The notes below the pieces were generated by a model. It was not told the DNA's origin, did no database searches, and saw nothing but the letters and a program-made list of their open reading frames with translations. A stretch of DNA of 64,000 bases from the NCBI RefSeq assembly GCF_058153355.1, contig NZ_CM177019.1. One strand, given 5' to 3'. Position 1 is the stretch's first letter. Every line of letters starts with the position of its first letter. Shown one piece after another: positions 22,528 through 32,685 of the stretch. The translations under genes and the position numbers were made by a program.

Positions 22528-22752
22528 TGATATGTAATTTCCCGCTTATTCATTAATGATTAAACACATTACCTTTTGATTATTAATCAAAAACATTAAT
22601 TTCACCTGATCCAATTCACACTTTTAAATTCAGGTCGGAATCGTCACCTTTTTTTACTCTTTTCTCGCCTTGTTGATATTCCCGTTCACGGCAGAATTAA
22701 TCATGTCATTTCAATAAAACTAAAAATTGCTCCCTATGCACGAGGAATATCT

Positions 22753-24153
22753 ATGACCTCTACACCGATTACTACCGCTGATATCGCTAAAGGTAAAATT
22801 GACGATGCGTTATCTGTACGGGAAAAAATAGGCTACGGCCTGGGTGACGCAGGCGGCACCGTAATAACTTGCCTGATCATGAACTTTCTCACCTTTTTCT
22901 ACACCGACGTTTTTGGCTTAACTCCGGCGCTGGTCGGCACGCTGTTTATTGCACTGCGCGTGTTTGATGCCATCTCCGACCCGGTGATGGGCGTCATTGC
23001 CGACCGGACGCAAAGCCGCTGGGGGCGTTTTCGTCCGTGGCAGCTATGGATTGCCGTCCCTATTGGCATTATCGGCATCCTGACGTTCACCGTACCGGAC
23101 GCCAGTATGGGGGTGAAGATCGCCTGGGCGTTCGGCACCTATCTGCTGCTTTCCGTCGGTTATACCGCCATCAACGTGCCGTACTGCGCGCTGATCAACA
23201 CCATGACGACCCGCCACAATGAGGTAATTTCGTGCCAGTCCTGGCGATTCGTTCTCTGCGGCGTAGCGGGATTTCTGGTTTCGGTTGGCCTGCCGTGGAT
23301 GGTAGATCTCTTCGGTCAGGGTAATGCCGCGCGCGGCTATCAACTGGGCGTCGGCGTGCTGTGCGCCATCGCTGTGGTGATGTTCCTGTGCTGTTTCTTC
23401 TGGGTTCGTGAACGGGTGCCACTCTCCACAATGGGGAAATTTACCCTGCGCGAACATCTTGCCGGGCTGCGAAACAACGACCAACTGCTGCTGATGCTGG
23501 TCATGTCTTTCCTGCTGATTAACGTCTTTAATATTCGCGGCGGTGGGTATATGTACTTCATTACCTACGTCTTACAAGGCAGTACGGGCTACACGTCGCT
23601 GTTCTTCACTATGGTCACCTTCGCCTCCATTATCGGCTCGGTGATTGTCAGCCCGTTAACGCGACGTTTCGATACCGTCAAAATTTACTACTACACCAAC
23701 CTGCTCCTCGCCGCGCTGGCGGTGTTGATGTGGTTCCTGCCTTCTGGCCCGGCTTATCAAACGCTGTGGCTGGCGGTGATCCTTGGTAATGGCGTGATTC
23801 TTGGCTTCACATTGCCATTGCACTTCTCATTGATGGCCTTTGCCGATGACTACGGCGAGTGGAAAACCCGCGTACGTTCTTCCGGCATGAACTTCGCCTT
23901 CAATCTGTTTTTCATCAAGCTGGCCTGGGCCTCCAGCGCCGGGATCATCAGCCTGCTGTTTATTTTTGTCGCCTACCAGCCTGGCGTGGAAAACCAGACC
24001 GCCAGTTCGCTTGGCGGGATCGCGGCGATGGAAACATTGCTGCCTGCGCTGTTCCACCTGCTGCTGGCGATGGCGATCCGCTTTTGCAAACTCAATAACC
24101 CTATGATGTCACGCATTGCTAGCGACCTGCGTCAGCGTCATGTACAGCCTTAA
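22753..24153 (+). CDS. MFS transporter, glycoside-pentoside-hexuronide:cation symporter family
   Basis: 466 aa, ~12 predicted TM segments; GPH-family N-terminal region ([30 protein letters not shown], ...[13 protein letters not shown]). Confidence 0.8.
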
Positions 24154-24163
24154 GGAGCACAAG

Positions 24164-26134
24164 ATGAACATTTCGGAAGTCGATCTGCATAAACTGACGG
24201 TCAGCGATCCGTTCCTCGGTCAGTACCAACAACTGGTCCGCGACGTGGTGATTCCTTATCAGTGGGATGCCTTGAACGATCGTATCCCAGAAGCGGAACC
24301 CAGCCATGCGATTGAAAACTTTCGCATTGCCGCAGGACTGCAAGACGGTGAATTTTACGGGATGGTGTTTCAGGACAGCGACGTCGCCAAATGGCTGGAA
24401 GCGGTAGCCTGGTCGCTGTGCCAGAAGCCGGATGCCGAACTGGAAAAAACTGCTGACGAGGTAATCGAACTGGTCGCTTCCGCCCAGTGCGAAGATGGCT
24501 ATCTCAATACTTACTTTACGGTAAAAGCGCCCGAAGAACGCTGGAGCAATCTGGCGGAGTGTCATGAACTTTACTGCGCCGGTCATCTGATTGAAGCCGG
24601 AGTCGCCTTCTTCCAGGCCACGGGCAAGCGGCGCTTGCTGGAAGTGGTTTGCCGTCTGGCCGATCATATCGACAGCGTATTTGGTCCAGGTGAAAGTAAG
24701 TTACACGGTTATCCTGGTCATCCGGAAATTGAACTGGCACTGATGCGCCTGTATGAAGTGACCGAAGAGCCGCGCTACCTGGCGCTGACGAACTATTTTG
24801 TCGAACAGCGTGGTGCGCAACCGCACTATTACGACTAGGAATATGAAAAGCGCGGGCAGACCTCGCACTGGCACACCTACGGCCCGGCGTGGATGGTGAA
24901 AGACAAAGCCTACAGCCAGGCACATTTGCCCATCGCACAGCAGCAAACCGCCATTGGTCACGCGGTACGTTTTGTCTACCTGATGACCGGCGTCGCGCAT
25001 CTCGCGCGTTTAAGTCACGATGAAAGCAAGCGTCAGGACTGCCTGCGGCTGTGGAACAATATGGCCCAGCGTCAGTTATATATTACCGGCGGCATTGGCT
25101 CACAAAGCAGCGGCGAAGCGTTCAGCAGCGATTACGATCTGCCGAATGACACGGTATACGCCGAAAGCTGTGCTTCCATCGGCCTGATGATGTTCGCCCG
25201 GCGAATGCTGGAAATGGAAGGCGACAGTCACTATGCCGATGTGATGGAGCGCGCACTGTACAACACCGTGCTCGGCGGCATGGCGCTGGATGGCAAACAT
25301 TTCTTCTATGTGAATCCGCTGGAAGTACATCCAAAATCGCTGAAATTCAACCATATCTACGATCACGTTAAGCCGATCCGCCAGCGTTGGTTTGGTTGCG
25401 CTTGTTGTCCGCCAAATATCGCCCGCGTGCTAACCTCGATTGGTCATTATCTCTACACGCCGCGTGAAGATGCGTTGTATATCAACATCTACGCAGGAAA
25501 CAGCATGGAAGTGCCGGTAGAAAATGGCACGCTGCGTCTGCGGGTTAGCGGAAACTATCCGTGGCAGGAACAGGTGACAATTGCGGTTGAATCGCCCCAG
25601 CCGGTGCGTCATACGCTGGCTTTACGTCTGCCGGACTGGTGCACACAGCCGCAGATTACATTGAATGGGGAAGAGGTCGAGCAGGATATTCGTAAAGGGT
25701 ATTTGCACATTACCCGCGAATGGCAGGAGGGCGACACGCTGAATCTGACTTTGCCAATGCCGGTACGTCGCGTTTACGGTAACCCGCTGGTGCGTCACGT
25801 CGCCGGAAAAGTGGCGATTCAGCGCGGCCCGCTGGTGTATTGCCTGGAACAGGCCGACAACGGCGAGTCACTGCATAACCTGTGGCTGCCCGCCGATGCG
25901 CCATTTACGACATTTGAAGGTAATGGATTGTTCCGCCATAAGATCTTAATCCAGGCACCGGGTTACCGGTATGAACAGAGCAATCCAGAGCAGCAACCGC
26001 TGTGGCATTACGACAGCGCGCCAGCCAAACGCCAGCCGCAAACTCTGACATTTATCCCGTGGTTTAGCTGGGCTAACCGGGGTGAAGGCGAAATGCGGAT
26101 CTGGGTGAATGAGGAAAACCAGTGCCATCCGTAG
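24164..26134 (+). pseudogene. Glycoside hydrolase family 127-like (beta-L-arabinofuranosidase / DUF1680) gene interrupted by one in-frame TAG at 24836-24838
   Basis: The ORFs 24116-24838 and 24893-26134 are in the same frame and separated only by an amber codon (…AQPHYYD*EYEKRGQTSHWHTYGPAWMVKDKA…); combined length ~656 aa is typical of GH127; RBS AAGGAG 7 nt before the ATG at 24164. Confidence 0.65.
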
Positions 26135-26136
26135 GT

Positions 26137-26215
26137 AGGATAAGGCGCTCGCGCCGCATCCAACCTAGGGTGCACATTGCCTGATGCGACGCTTAACGCG
26201 TCTTATCAAGCCTGA
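26137..26215. repeat. REP-like palindromic sequence
   Basis: ggataaggcgctcgcgccgcatcc and gcctgatgcgacgc motifs. Confidence 0.4.
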
Positions 26216-26263
26216 AGGTCAGTGCGAGAGCGTAGGCCAGCCGCACCGACATCCACCGGTAAA

Positions 26264-27004
26264 TTAAAAACGCCAGCTCACGCCGGTGACAAAGGTAAAA
26301 CTCTCATTACGATCAATCATCGGGCTGTCGGTAATCTCTTCCGGCAGCTCGCTGTATCCGGCACTCGCCATCAATACGATGTGCTCTCCTATCGGGTATT
26401 TTGCCGTCAGGCTGACATAGGGCACCCAGGCATCCTGCGCGGAATAACTTGCCAGACCGCTACGACGGGACTCACTCTCTGAAATGCCATAGTAATAGTC
26501 ACTGAAATTCTCGTCATAATAGAGAACGCCCAGTGCAGGTGTCAGCGACAGGCGACCTATCTGCATTTTGTGAAATACCGATAGCTCCCCCACCCAGCCG
26601 TTGCTGTTATCCAGAACGTCCGCAGCCGCAGAGGCTTTCACGGTTCCCCAACGCTCGTGGTGATACCAGGCAACCCCCGCCATAGCCGTACTATCACGCT
26701 TATCAAGCTGTTGCATGGCATGATCGTCATTATCTGCAGGGTCAAATTCCAGCGGCATCCAGGATGCGGTCAGGCTAAGTTCATTTTTTTCACTTTGCGA
26801 CAGAATAAAACCTAACGTGGTCTGACGAACATAAAAAGAATCACCTTCATAACTAATCAGCGGAATTGCCTTTGTATTTTCATTATAACCACGATAAGGC
26901 GATTCATTATAAGCTGCACCAGCACCAATGGATAATTCAGAAGCAGTAGCGCTTGCCATAAAAGGCAACGTAAATAACGCCACAATATTGCGGTTAATTA
27001 ACAT
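26264..27004 (-). CDS. yiaT: MipA/OmpV-family outer membrane protein
   Basis: 246 aa with signal peptide MLINRNIVALFTLPFMASATA, beta-barrel-like composition, C-terminal aromatic residue (…VSWRF). Confidence 0.85.
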   Translation of the reverse strand: MLINRNIVALFTLPFMASATASELSIGAGAAYNESPYRGYNENTKAIPLISYEGDSFYVRQTTLGFILSQSEKNELSLTASWMPLEFDPADNDDHAMQQLDKRDSTAMAGVAWYHHERWGTVKASAAADVLDNSNGWVGELSVFHKMQIGRLSLTPALGVLYYDENFSDYYYGISESESRRSGLASYSAQDAWVPYVSLTAKYPIGEHIVLMASAGYSELPEEITDSPMIDRNESFTFVTGVSWRF

Positions 27005-28102: not shown

Positions 28103-29235
28103 TGATCGAGATAAAGGTAATGCACCCAACTGGTCATGCGTAACAGCACTTTGCGCATCACCGAGACATGGCTGAAATGATCAGAGTAAACCGCCACCTG
28201 GGCGTAAATACCGTCTGGTAAAGCGCTCAACTCAGTGTGCTCATCCAGTTCAATGGTCGCGATAACGCCATCTGAACCCGGTGCTGTGTTTAACGTCTGT
28301 AAGGTGCCGGTCGACTGATAAGCTCCGCCGGGAACAGCTGGGCTAATGGCTGCCAGCTTACCGCTGAATACCTTACCTGGCAGAGCATTAAACACCACTT
28401 CCGCATCATCGCCGGGAGCCAGTCGCAGCAAGGAGTTCTGACGGAACTGCGCCACAATTTGTCGTTTCTGATCGGGTATAAACACCATCACAGGACGTAG
28501 CGGCAGCGATGCGGCATAGGTACCCGGACGAATCAGCACTTGCGTCACATAACCATCGCTCGGCGCACGCACTATCGTCTGCTCAAGGTTATATTTTGCT
28601 TCCGCGAGCTGCGCTTTCAGGCTGGCGATTTGAGAATGTTCACCCAACACCAGGCTATCCAGCTGGCTCTGGATCTGTTTTTGTTCCGCCGCCGATGACT
28701 TTACGGAGGCTTCCTGCGCCAGATAATTTTGCCGCGCCACATCAATATCGCGTTCTGAAAACGGGTTTACTTTCGCCTGGCTGCCGCGTGCGTAACGCTG
28801 GTACTCTTTAGCGAATTTATCCCGCGTGGCCTTTGCCTGCTGAGTATTCGCCGCCATCTCATCTAACTCTGCGCCCAACGCCCGCTGTTTATGTTCTGCG
28901 GTAACGATATCCGCCATCAGCCGATCCACCCGCGCCTGATAACGCGTCGGGTCCAGTCGAAATAGCACCTCACCTTTTTTAATCAGCGTATTTTTCTTGT
29001 CCGTCACTTCGATCACCACGCCTGTCACCTGCGGGACAACAGGAATAGAAATAACTGCTTTTTGCGCTTTAAAGGTATACGGATGGTTATAGTTCATTAA
29101 CAGAATTAGACCGCTGACAATAAATATGCCACCCAGGGCCGCGGTGGGAATGGTCCATTTATTTACAGGAATTTTGAAGATCTTAAACATTGCCCATGCG
29201 AAAGCCACATAGGTCAAAATAATCAGTAAATCCAT
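28099..29235 (-). CDS. yiaV: HlyD-family membrane fusion (periplasmic adaptor) protein
   Basis: 378 aa; N-terminal TM anchor, coiled-coil, beta-barrel domain. Confidence 0.9.
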
Positions 29236-29240
29236 AAGTA

Positions 29241-29564
29241 TTACTCGGCAGAAGAGGATTTGATGTCGGCGAGCTGTTTCTCCAGCCCGGCAATACGCTG
29301 TTGTAGTTGCACAACGGAGGAGTCATGGTTTTGCATTCCCCATCCCCGCTCCGGGCGATAAAGCGTGGCCCAAATCCACAAAAATGGCCAGATAACATGC
29401 AGCGTAAAAAGACTCACCCAACCAGCAACATGAATGGCGTCGGCATGAGGATGATTACGTTTTTTAGCAATCAGGTAGGGAATATCATGTAAAATAATAA
29501 TCCCATAGAATATCACCAGAAATACAAAAATAAGCACTCCCAGTGCAAAATAGTCCAGGAACAT
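29241..29564 (-). CDS. yiaW: DUF3302 small inner-membrane protein
   Basis: 107 aa from [30 protein letters not shown]; immediately upstream of yiaV on the same strand. Confidence 0.85.
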
Positions 29565-29725
29565 ATTTCCCTCAGAGAATATAAAAAAGAACAATTAACG
29601 CATATTATGAAATGCCATGATGCAGTGCAATTTCCTTATTTATATAACGACATATTGTTTTTTATATACTTTCCGAAGTGTGCTACCTGGCTTTTCAACA
29701 GGTCGAGGTTTATCATATTGAAATA

Positions 29726-30061
29726 ATGGAACTATTGACCAAACTAATGAATAACCCCAGTAAAACATCCACAGTACAGATAAAGCGTATTAAACCTTCA
29801 ATTATCTACCGTTTATTGCTGATTGGCCTCGGAACACCAATGGTGATTTACGGTCTGGTTTGCGGCGTTTTAGGCATATTTGGCTACGATCAGGTGAGAT
29901 GGAACGACACCGTGATCCACGGCCTGCTGGCCCTGCCTGCGGGATTGCTTGCAGGCCTGTCAGTCAGTGTGTTCCTCACCGTGGTGATTGGCACCATCGC
30001 TTGTTTTGGTCTGTGGCTGTACAGCCTGGTCCGCCCGCTCACCATCGAAACGCGAGATTAA
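29726..30061 (+). CDS. Hypothetical small membrane protein (start uncertain; 29678 is an alternative)
   Basis: ORF with hydrophobic helices (LLLIGLGTPMVIYGLVCGVLGIFGY; LLALPAGLLAGLSVSVFLTVVIGTIACFGLWLY); convergent with hicB; no family recognised. Confidence 0.4.
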   Translation: MELLTKLMNNPSKTSTVQIKRIKPSIIYRLLLIGLGTPMVIYGLVCGVLGIFGYDQVRWNDTVIHGLLALPAGLLAGLSVSVFLTVVIGTIACFGLWLYSLVRPLTIETRD

Positions 30062-30468
30062 ACGCCCGGCAATACACGCCGGGCGGCTTCCGCCAGAAAC
30101 GCACTTCTGTTGGCGTAGTCTGGGTTATTGCGCACGTAGGTATCAATCTTGTTCAGTAATCTTTTCGGCATCGTAATATTGATACGTTCAGCCCGACCTT
30201 CGAACTGATTCATATTGATATCCACCAGCAACCATTGCCCGCCAATAAAGTCCTGCGCACGCTGGACCAGATGTGTTTCCACAGAGCCTGGAAGCGGCAA
30301 CTCTTCATTCATCTCGCATAAGGTTTCGAAGTGCGCGACCAGTGCACTTCGCGCATCCTGGAAAGCGTTGTCCAGCGTATCACCAGCAAAATAACAGCCT
30401 GGAACATCAGGGAAAAAACCGCTGGCGCTGCCGTCAGGATCACTGTGGATATAGGCGGGATAAAACAT
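30058..30468 (-). CDS. hicB: HicB-family antitoxin (RNase H-like fold N-domain + C-terminal RHH DNA-binding motif)
   Basis: 136 aa; …NITMPKRLLNKIDTYVRNNPDYANRSAFLAEAARRVL is a ribbon-helix-helix tail typical of HicB; located 16 bp downstream of the hicA-like ORF. Confidence 0.75.
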   Translation of the reverse strand: MFYPAYIHSDPDGSASGFFPDVPGCYFAGDTLDNAFQDARSALVAHFETLCEMNEELPLPGSVETHLVQRAQDFIGGQWLLVDINMNQFEGRAERINITMPKRLLNKIDTYVRNNPDYANRSAFLAEAARRVLPGV

Positions 30469-30484
30469 ATTGCCTCCTGAAATT

Positions 30485-30670
30485 TTAAAATGTTAAACCA
30501 GCCTGACGCCCAATTTGCGCCAGCGTACCGGGCTTAATATCTTTTTTAGGGTGCGGAACCGTCACCAGACCCGGATGAACAGGGTGGCGGAACTGATGAT
30601 GACTACCACGGGTTCGAATATGTTCCCAGCCATGCTGCTTCAGGATGGCGATCACGTCTGCACTTTTCAC
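30485..30670 (-). CDS. hicA: HicA-family mRNA interferase toxin
   Basis: 61 aa: …TRGSHHQFRHPVHPGLVTVPHPKKDIKPGTLAQIGRQAGLTF matches the HicA signature (GSHH…P…K-D-I/L…G-T-L…I…Q-A-G-L). Confidence 0.75.
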   Translation of the reverse strand: MKSADVIAILKQHGWEHIRTRGSHHQFRHPVHPGLVTVPHPKKDIKPGTLAQIGRQAGLTF

Positions 30671-30947
30671 ATCCCTGCCCTTCCATGATTATACACACGA
30701 TACACACACATTTAGCAATAACAATCACGATAGCGCGATTTATATGGGCCGTCAGGGGGATAAAGTTGACTCAGGAATGCCGTTCGGAAGAAGAATAACG
30801 GTGTGCAGTAACTTGTTGAAAAGATGTGAGGAGACTCGTAATTAAGTTCAATCAATATTCAGTCATTCAAGACGTAGACATTTGAATTGGTAAAACGCGA
30901 AAGCGTCGCATCAGGCAATGAATACCCGATGCGACCAGCTTCTTACA

Positions 30948-32485
30948 TCAGAACAGCCCCAACGGTTTATCTGAGTAGCTCACCAGCAGGCACTTGGTTT
31001 GCTGATAATGCTCAAGCATCATCTTATGGGTTTCGCGCCCAATACCCGACTGCTTATAGCCACCAAACGCCGCATGTGTCGGGTAAGCGTGATAACAGTT
31101 GGTCCACACTCGCCCGGCCTGAATGCCGCGCCCCATCTTATAGGCCAGATTACCGTTGCGGCTCCAGACACCAGCCCCCAGACCATATTGCGTGTCGTTC
31201 GCCAGCTCCAGCGCTTCTTCCATCGTTTTGAAGGTGGTTACCGCCAGCACCGGACCAAAAATTTCTTCCTGGAACACGCGCATATTATTCTGACCAAACA
31301 GAATCGTCGGTTCGAGGTAGTAGCCGTCTTTCAGTTCGCCTTCCAGCAGCTTGCGCCGCCCACCGGTGAGCACGTCTGCGCCCTCTTTTTTACCGATATC
31401 AATGTAGTTGAGGATGGTTTCCAGTTGCCCGTGCGAAACTTGCGCCCCCATTTGCGTCACGCTATCGAGCGGGTTACCGCTGCGAATGCTTTCGACACGG
31501 CGGATGGCGCGTTCCATAAAGCGTTCGTAGATAGACTCCTGCACTAAAGCACGGCTTGGACAGGTGCAAACTTCGCCCTGGTTAAAGGCAAACAGTGCAA
31601 AGCCTTCCAGCGCTTTATCGAAAAAGGCATCTTCTTCATCCATCACATCAGCAAAGAAGATATTGGCGACTTGCCGCCCAGCTCCAGGGTTACCGGAATA
31701 ATATTTTGCGTGGCGTACTGCATAATTTGTTGGCCCACTTCCGTTGAGCCGGTAAACGCCACTTTAGCGATGCGTTTCGAGGTCGCCAGATATTCGCCAA
31801 TTTCCCCACCAGCACCGTTGACCACGTTCACCACGCCCGGCGGCAGTAAATCACCGACGATTTCCATTAGCAGCAGTACAGAAAGCGGGGTAAGACGTGC
31901 GGGTTTCAGCACCACACAGTTGCCCGCCGCCAGCGCGGGAGCCATTTTCCAGCTCGCCATCAGCAGCGGGAAGTTCCACGGAATAATCTGCCCCACCACG
32001 CCTAACGGTTCGTGGAAGTGATAAGCCACAGTTTCGCTATCAACTTCACTGATCCCACCTTCCTGCGCCCGAATACACGAGGCGAAATAGCGGAAGTGGT
32101 CAATCGCCAGCGGTACATCAGCAGCACTGGTTTCGCGAATGGGTTTGCCGTTATCCCAGGTTTCAGCCGTCGCTAAAAGTTCGAGGTTTTGCTCCATTCG
32201 ATCGGCAATCTTAAACAGAATCGCCGCGCGATCCTGCACCGAAGTATGCGCCCATTTATCTTTCACTTTATGCGCAGCATCCAGCGCCAGATCGATATCT
32301 CGTTTACCCGAAGACGCCACTTCGCACAGTAGCTGCCCGGTCACCGGCGTCAGGTTCTGGTAATACTCGCCGTCGGCGGGCGCGACCCATTCGCCGCCAA
32401 TAAAGTTGTCATAGCGGGCTTTTAACTTGAGGGGGAAGCCATACTCGCCGGGCTTAATCTGTGCTGAAGGGGGATTGTTGGTCAT
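30948..32485 (-). pseudogene. aldB: Aldehyde dehydrogenase B with a 1-bp deletion (frameshift) near codon ~279
   Basis: N-fragment ([20 protein letters not shown]… to …LELGGKSP) and C-fragment (…[16 protein letters not shown]… to …DKPLGLF) are both ALDH sequence in different frames; junction reads ggcaagtcgccaatatcttc, where a further A (ccaaatatc) would restore …[16 protein letters not shown]…. Confidence 0.8.
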
Positions 32486-32685
32486 GATCGTCTCCTTGCG
32501 GTGTGAGGTATAACAAGGGTAGACGTGACTGGCGAAATCTTCGCCAGCTGGTGATAGCTTTACGACGGCTATCACGAATTTACGGGCAAGGATTACAGAG
32601 ATAACTAAAACTCTCTCAAAAATCGCAAATTTTGAGAGAGTTGAAAAAATGGCTGACAATTAGCCAGCCATTGTGGGAATGATGA

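Follow-up and report, generated by a model that had tools for sequence, protein, structure and literature searches.

HicAB toxin-antitoxin pairs have been described in Burkholderia pseudomallei, Yersinia pestis and Escherichia coli K-12, and these systems are the closest points of reference for the pair reported here. In K-12 (hicA/yncN-hicB/ydcQ) an excess of HicA derepresses the operon (PMC7167474), and the transcript made from the autoregulated promoter (P2) supports the synthesis of HicB only (PMC7167474; PMC10865869). Published HicB operators are described as palindromic, and phage defence has been argued as a role of hicAB (PMC10865869). In the classification of Gerdes (2024, PMC10865869), class 4 comprises classical hicAB operons whose HicB has a ribbon-helix-helix.

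The pair studied here lies in a stretch of 64,000 nucleotides (the window), between two minus-strand genes, yiaW (29241-29564) and aldB (from 30948). The first-pass annotation had placed a 61-aa HicA-like and a 136-aa HicB-like open reading frame (ORF), 16 bp apart, between these two genes. Its coordinates and flanking genes hold, and both frames were confirmed by the ORF list, the sequence, Pfam and matches to solved structures. The gene set of the region is complete in the window (sgbE/araD-AraC-MFS-GH127-yiaT-yiaU-yiaV-yiaW-memORF-hicB-hicA-aldB), and the features discussed below are collected in Table 1. The aldB gene of the window carries a frameshift, caused by the deletion of 1 nt.

Table 1. 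Features of the yiaW-aldB interval, in window positions, and gene arrangements found at this locus in other E. coli (types a to d)
Feature	Position	Strand	Description	Basis
Membrane-protein gene	29747..30061	plus	104 aa, ATG at 29747	orthologue starts, RefSeq
Membrane-ORF stretch absent in frame from K-12-type strains	29864..30019	plus	central part of the ORF	alignment, blastn overlap
hicB 3' end, K-12 relic	30058..30141	minus	about the last 27 codons	tblastn, blastn
hicB	30058..30468	minus	136 aa, ATG start after AGGAGG, predicted HicB antitoxin	ORF list, sequence
Possible hicAB terminator	30063..30085	minus	GC-rich hairpin in the last hicB codons, then TTTAAT	terminator scan
Segment missing from K-12 MG1655 and most E. 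coli	30142..30887		746 bp	blastn against MG1655 intergenic DNA, alignment, genome count
hicA	30485..30670	minus	61 aa, GTG start, HicA toxin, predicted mRNA interferase	ORF list, sequence
Candidate promoter and HicB operator	30688..30707	minus	tandem TGTGTAT repeats and TATAAT; putative function	
Second conserved upstream box, GCGCTAnnGTGAT	30724..30736	minus		conserved columns in 17-taxon alignment
Type a, K-12			47-aa membrane ORF, then ~27-codon hicB 3' relic (12-nt deletion), then 90 bp of REP DNA	
Type b, strain 6409			intact membrane ORF and the same hicB relic	
Type c, KTa008			AraC-MFS-GH127 joined to hicB-hicA-aldB; last ~25 nt of the membrane ORF kept	
Type d, ESC53083			GH127-REP-aldB, no hicAB	

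Profile searches agreed with the family assignment that had been read from the letters. The toxin matched Pfam HicA_toxin (PF07927, E=2.1e-23) with residues 4-59 on model positions 2-58 of 58, and the antitoxin matched HicB_lk_antitox (PF15919, E=9.1e-36) with residues 3-129 over the whole model, matches so strong that they lie far beyond chance. RefSeq names the two proteins accordingly, as “type II toxin-antitoxin system HicA family toxin” (WP_000833473.1) and “HicB family antitoxin” (WP_000499744.1). HicA begins with VKSADVIAILKQHGWEHIRTRGSHHQF, contains RGSHHQFRHP and KKDIKPGTLAQIGRQAGL, and its GTG start is preceded by a weak ribosome-binding site (GGAAGGG). The solved structures closest to it are those of B. 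pseudomallei HicA (4C26/6G26, E about 1e-16, residues 1-59). In the phmmer alignment, G22-S23-H24-H25 of the query stand opposite G-S-A-H of these chains. Gly22 is kept and His24 faces an alanine in the GSAHHF stretch of the crystallised chain, which is the H24A catalytic mutant. Both the predicted catalytic His24 and the preceding Gly22 are conserved in the window protein.

The hicA gene lies upstream of hicB on the same strand, a bicistronic arrangement read from the sequence, and the 16 bp that separate the stop of hicA from the ATG of hicB (30469-30484) contain an AGGAGG Shine-Dalgarno motif. This order and spacing had been called typical of hicAB, a description that stands. The best solved relative of HicB is B. 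pseudomallei HicB (6G1N, E=2.8e-25, residues 2-133), and Y. pestis HicB3 (4P78) was also matched (E=1.6e-21). Residues 1-87, which align to 6G1C, 6G1N and 4P78, make up an N-terminal domain of the partial RNase-H-like type, and the 6G1N and 4P78 alignments extend through the C-terminal region (ERINITMPKRLLNKIDTYV...NRSAFLAEAARRVL), supporting the ribbon-helix-helix that had been proposed there and that is predicted to span residues about 95-133.

When the pair is set beside the described systems, the B. pseudomallei operon has the toxin gene first as well, and Gly22 and His24 carry identical residue numbers in its HicA. It belongs, however, to another phylum-level lineage, and its proteins are clearly diverged from those of the window. 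Y. pestis HicA3-HicB3 (4P78, 4P7D) has the same operon architecture, and its ribbon-helix-helix HicB aligned over the full length, whereas its HicA is distant from the window HicA (E=1e-4). The K-12 pair belongs to the same family as the window pair and resembles it in gene order and general logic, but it occupies a different chromosomal locus, and the C-terminus of its HicB is a helix-turn-helix (class 3), in contrast to the ribbon-helix-helix of the window HicB. Moreover, K-12 HicB (6HPB) matches the window HicB over residues 1-66 only (E=1e-5), and K-12 HicA showed no match to the window HicA at E<=1. The window pair therefore differs from the hicAB of the ydcQ locus, as the first-pass annotation had maintained. 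Since HicB has a ribbon-helix-helix and the operon is of the classical kind, the pair falls into class 4 of Gerdes 2024.

Searches of other collections returned less. No NCBIfam match was obtained for HicA, HicB or the neighbouring membrane protein, nor any match to PADLOC defence families at E<=0.01. The locus does not form a defence island, and positions 28500-32000 had no match in Rfam. No published study of an aldB-linked hicAB pair was found in a literature of which our coverage was incomplete. In short, the family to which the pair belongs is well studied, and the pair itself is ordinary and has been annotated before.

The DNA upstream of hicA was compared in an alignment of 17 taxa, covering about 130 nt with a mean column identity of 60%. 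This region has diverged overall and contains sharp conserved islands, among them the GTG start, invariant across the 17 taxa, and an AGG-type ribosome-binding site. The most conspicuous element is formed by two direct repeats of TGTGTAT, detected by a repeat search at 30706-30700 and 30697-30691, the second of which overlaps a perfect -10 box TATAAT at 30693-30688. The block of repeats and TATAAT is nearly invariant in the 17 enterobacterial loci amid diverged upstream DNA, and the repeats are likely the HicB operator on an autoregulated promoter. Unlike the palindromic published HicB operators, this candidate consists of direct repeats. The TATAAT box has a poor -35 element (TTGCTA at a spacing of 19 bp), and a promoter scanner made no call there. 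A palindromic operator was also sought upstream of hicA, and the sole inverted repeat reported was at 30905-30935, a hairpin immediately past the end of aldB that is probably related to aldB or to REP sequences.

A second conserved box, GCGCTAnnGTGAT, lies further upstream, with invariant or nearly invariant columns C66, T69, A70, G73, T74, A76 and T77. A -35-like CTGACG, including the invariant G48 (30753), is found 17 nt upstream of it. This box may be the -10 element (TAnnGT) of an upstream promoter or, alternatively, a further binding site; a second promoter at this position could make the full hicAB message. The putative TATAAT promoter with its tandem repeats, in turn, resembles the P2 promoter of K-12, whose transcript supports HicB synthesis only. 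The ribbon-helix-helix hicAB might independently use the two-promoter control by a HicB-only transcript that is known from the unrelated helix-turn-helix hicAB of K-12. Other readings of the conserved box were set aside: a dyad of AATCGCG and CGTGATT (30723-30740) that overlaps it is weak and is not kept as a dyad in other genera, and a CRP site at the conserved TGTGAT was dropped because only one of its half-sites is conserved. At the other end of the operon, the hairpin in the last hicB codons has a fold of -23.3 kcal/mol (z=-1.67), modestly better than shuffled sequences, and may terminate the hicAB operon.

Downstream of hicB a small membrane-protein gene is encoded on the opposite strand. 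The first-pass annotation had described a convergent ORF of 112-127 aa overlapping the hicB 3' end by 4 nt. The overlap was recovered: the plus-strand ORF ends at 30061, so that its stop is shared with that of hicB, in the 4-nt palindrome TTAA (30058-30061). The length had to be corrected to 104 aa, as orthologues from Pseudocitrobacter faecalis and Enterobacter sp. kpr-6 (53-57% identity, same convergent stop-overlapping position) begin at a methionine aligned with the ATG at 29747, and RefSeq annotates the same start (WP_001064341.1, “hypothetical protein”). With a dN/dS of 0.09-0.27 (synonymous sites being saturated between genera), the ORF represents a real gene under purifying selection. 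Its product has a basic N-terminus (KRIKPS) and, according to hydropathy, two hydrophobic blocks (residues ~19-47 and ~55-97). In Pfam only a chance-level hit to Bac_rhodopsin was obtained (E=0.04), and a word-indexed protein search returned Escherichia copies only. A profile search of 1.84 billion representatives retrieved 295 clusters at E<=1e-3 (78 of them at E<=1e-10), the majority being full-length proteins 100-125 aa long. The protein is a full-length member of a family of small membrane proteins that is widespread and has no name.

The tight convergence of the membrane gene on hicB raises the question whether the three genes form one system, in which the membrane protein would act as sensor, target, effector or regulator, or in which the overlapping 3' ends would provide antisense coupling. 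The overlapping stops are kept in Escherichia, in Pseudocitrobacter (4 nt in both) and in Enterobacter sp. kpr-6 despite a protein identity of ~55%, which speaks for such a unit. The distribution of the genes, however, makes it very improbable. An intact membrane-ORF segment is present in 27 of 5,426 complete E. coli genomes, 15 of them with hicAB and 12 without (e.g., strain 6409), while hicAB occurs in about 490 E. coli genomes that lack an intact membrane ORF. In most other genera with hicAB near aldB, a GH127 gene is found downstream of hicB and the membrane ORF is absent. Close enterobacterial members of the membrane-protein family (P0039, P0040) face aldB directly in convergent orientation; about 45 bp separate the two genes there, and hicAB is absent. 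Distant members are found in unrelated contexts, again without hicAB. As the membrane ORF and hicAB occur apart from each other, the former is taken as an independent, conserved gene next to aldB, not as a third component. The membrane gene is an old neighbour of aldB, and hicAB lies between the two in a subset of lineages.

The yiaW-aldB interval was then compared across E. coli. Counted with a hicAB-specific segment (30142-30700), the module was present in 505 of the 5,426 complete genomes, as a single copy that was always chromosomal, and 504 of the 505 copies were at least 99% identical. The window represents a rare lineage that retains every gene of the region, whereas other E. coli have subsets. 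The statement of the first-pass annotation that yiaW and aldB are consecutive in K-12 is correct for the annotation, MG1655 having no annotated feature between the two genes, yet the intergenic DNA holds a relic of hicB and a membrane ORF with a deletion, both of which are therefore unannotated there. The segment lost from K-12 takes in the promoter region, hicA and hicB from codon 1 to about codon 109, and is replaced by 90 bp of REP-containing DNA. The remaining hicB 3' end lies at MG1655 3754751-3754822 and carries a 12-nt deletion. By tblastn, HicB residues 110-136 were found in a K-12-like locus (L002), in strain 6409, in Escherichia sp. MOD1-EC7003 and in E. whittamii.

The membrane ORF of K-12-type strains has undergone an in-frame deletion of 171 bp (57 codons) that leaves 47 aa (RefSeq CDS WP_001066080.1). 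This deletion lies between imperfect direct repeats of 15 nt (29849-29863 and 30020-30034), and its exact ends are ambiguous within the repeats. Further arrangements (types b to d in Table 1) were found in other strains, and Escherichia sp. E1V33 carries an intact, slightly diverged hicAB together with the membrane ORF. The K-12 pseudogenes ysaC and ysaD were considered as relics of the module and discarded, as ysaD lies upstream of yiaT and nothing is annotated between yiaW and aldB. A search for “ysaE” as a name for the 47-aa ORF of K-12 found nothing usable.

These remnants bear directly on the origin of the module. Its presence in fewer than one in ten E. coli genomes, and the frequent mobility of toxin-antitoxin modules, could suggest a mobile cassette that recently entered a K-12-like backbone at the yiaW-aldB junction. 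However, some 27 codons from the 3' end of hicB persist in K-12 and most E. coli. K-12 therefore represents a deleted state and the window is not the product of an insertion; the same relic is found in E. whittamii and Escherichia sp. MOD1-EC7003. Near aldB, hicAB is also present in at least six other enterobacterial genera, including Enterobacter, Lelliottia, Yokenella, Citrobacter and Pseudocitrobacter, with HicB 74-86% identical in the five named. Close copies on plasmids or phages are lacking: the relatives of hicAB found there are all less than 60% identical, for which reason a plasmid or phage origin was rejected. Two matches of at least 99% in a plasmid collection turned out to be misfiled chromosomes of 4.9 Mb. 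The locus itself showed neither an integrase nor an insertion sequence, and no repeats flank it. For E. coli the recent-cassette reading is largely refuted, and we give it hardly any credence. It is plausible that hicAB was inserted here in ancient times, given the enterobacterial relatives of the membrane ORF that lie directly against aldB without hicAB.

Taken together, the relics and the synteny near aldB across genera indicate an old, vertical resident that has been lost repeatedly. The hicAB pair is thus a long-standing member of the aldB neighbourhood in Enterobacteriaceae that was deleted from most E. coli, including K-12. The frequent loss in E. coli, and the frameshift in the adjoining aldB, would also fit an inactive, decaying remnant that has stayed intact by chance. 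This is most unlikely for a module in which both ORFs are full length and nearly all E. coli copies are almost identical. Selection across genera is strongly purifying (dN/dS 0.08 for hicA and 0.06-0.11 for hicB), the catalytic residues of HicA and the ribbon-helix-helix of HicB are conserved, and so are the promoter motifs and the GTG start in the 17 taxa. From the sequence comparisons as a whole, we consider it highly probable that the locus encodes a chromosomal, vertically inherited, classical type II hicAB toxin-antitoxin operon.

The homologous systems of B. pseudomallei, Y. pestis and E. coli K-12 allow a mechanism to be proposed, and it is from these that we infer the toxicity of HicA, its neutralisation by HicB, the identity of the operator and the biological role of the pair. 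HicA would be a small toxin of the dsRBD fold that cleaves mRNA independently of the ribosome, with an activity depending on His24. The partial RNase-H-like domain at the N-terminus of HicB would bind and block HicA, and HicB would dimerise by its C-terminal ribbon-helix-helix and repress the operon, with the tandem TGTGTAT repeats as the likely operator. If HicB were degraded, or HicA were in excess, repression would be relieved and free HicA would arrest growth. The weak start of the toxin gene (GTG with a poor ribosome-binding site), compared to the AGGAGG and ATG of the antitoxin gene, would favour the synthesis of antitoxin. Such a pair could serve in stabilisation of the locus, in phage defence or in a stress response.

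In terms of novelty, the pair adds one more classical hicAB, already named by RefSeq, to the accessory toxin-antitoxin repertoire of E. coli, and by itself it has little importance beyond its correct annotation. The added value of the analysis is modest and lies in the hicB and membrane-ORF relics of K-12, in the reconstruction of repeated loss and in the conserved candidate operator. It also brings to notice an unnamed family of small membrane proteins comprising about 300 clusters. The “intergenic” DNA between yiaW and aldB of K-12 is not empty, as it contains an unannotated hicB relic and a truncated gene for a small membrane protein. At this locus a chromosomal toxin-antitoxin module whose age goes back at least to the family-level radiation of these enterobacteria has been lost repeatedly and independently, and the strains that have kept or lost it provide natural backgrounds, with and without hicAB, in which the function of such modules can be tested.

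The region of MG1655 (K-12; L034) between yiaW and aldB, treated as "intergenic" and without annotated features, carries the small membrane-protein gene as a 47-aa allele with an in-frame deletion, together with a hicB relic of approximately 27 codons and REP sequences. An 11-nt inverted repeat (GTCGCATCAGG / CCCGATGCGAC), located in the window directly downstream of the aldB stop, is kept in each of the five E. coli locus types (the window and the K-12, 6409, KTa008 and ESC53083 arrangements). It is probably the terminator of aldB, or else an element resembling REP sequences.

Compared to E. coli EC42405, the window aldB differs at approximately 55 of 1,539 positions (~96.5% identity) and these differences are clustered, whereas the adjoining hicAB segment is 100% identical in the same strain, suggesting that a recombination mosaic may span the hicA-aldB boundary. 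The window aldB also carries a 1-nt deletion (plus strand: window GATA-TTGG, EC42405 GATATTTGG), which breaks the 512-aa reading frame into two ORFs; either aldB is truly a pseudogene here, or the deletion is an error of sequencing. A 1.2-kb contig labelled "MAG: Collinsella sp." (L007) encodes E. coli aldB-hicA-hicB with 98–100% protein identity, and is almost certainly a binning contaminant in a Collinsella metagenome-assembled genome.

Coordinates of the features described (window positions unless an accession is given)
Feature	Position	Strand
MFS transporter and GH127 glycoside hydrolase genes	~22750-27004	
hicAB segment compared with EC42405	30142-30700	
Inverted repeat	30905-30935	
aldB	30948-32486	-
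One of the two aldB ORFs	30948-31646	
Other of the two aldB ORFs	31643-32659	
1-nt deletion in aldB	near 31662 (region 31655-31670)	-
MG1655 yiaW-aldB region	NC_000913.3 3754429-3754972 (L034:3430-3973)	

The order of the gene blocks differs between genera: aldB-yiaW-yiaV-yiaU-...-hicA-hicB-memORF-GH127 in Pseudocitrobacter faecalis (L024) versus aldB-hicA-hicB-memORF-yiaW-yiaV-yiaU-yiaT-GH127 in Escherichia, memORF being the small membrane-protein gene. Judged from gene order, one of the two blocks would have been transposed as a unit.

Upstream of yiaT, the window contains genes for an MFS transporter and a GH127 glycoside hydrolase, which in the best-matching genome are preceded by a gene for an AraC-family regulator. 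K-12 lacks the AraC/MFS/GH127 genes, and, given its position, we suspect that the K-12 pseudogene ysaD is their remnant. In B2-like strains, such as KTa008, these genes are kept and yiaT-yiaW are absent. The window lineage combines the K-12 and B2-like arrangements in full.
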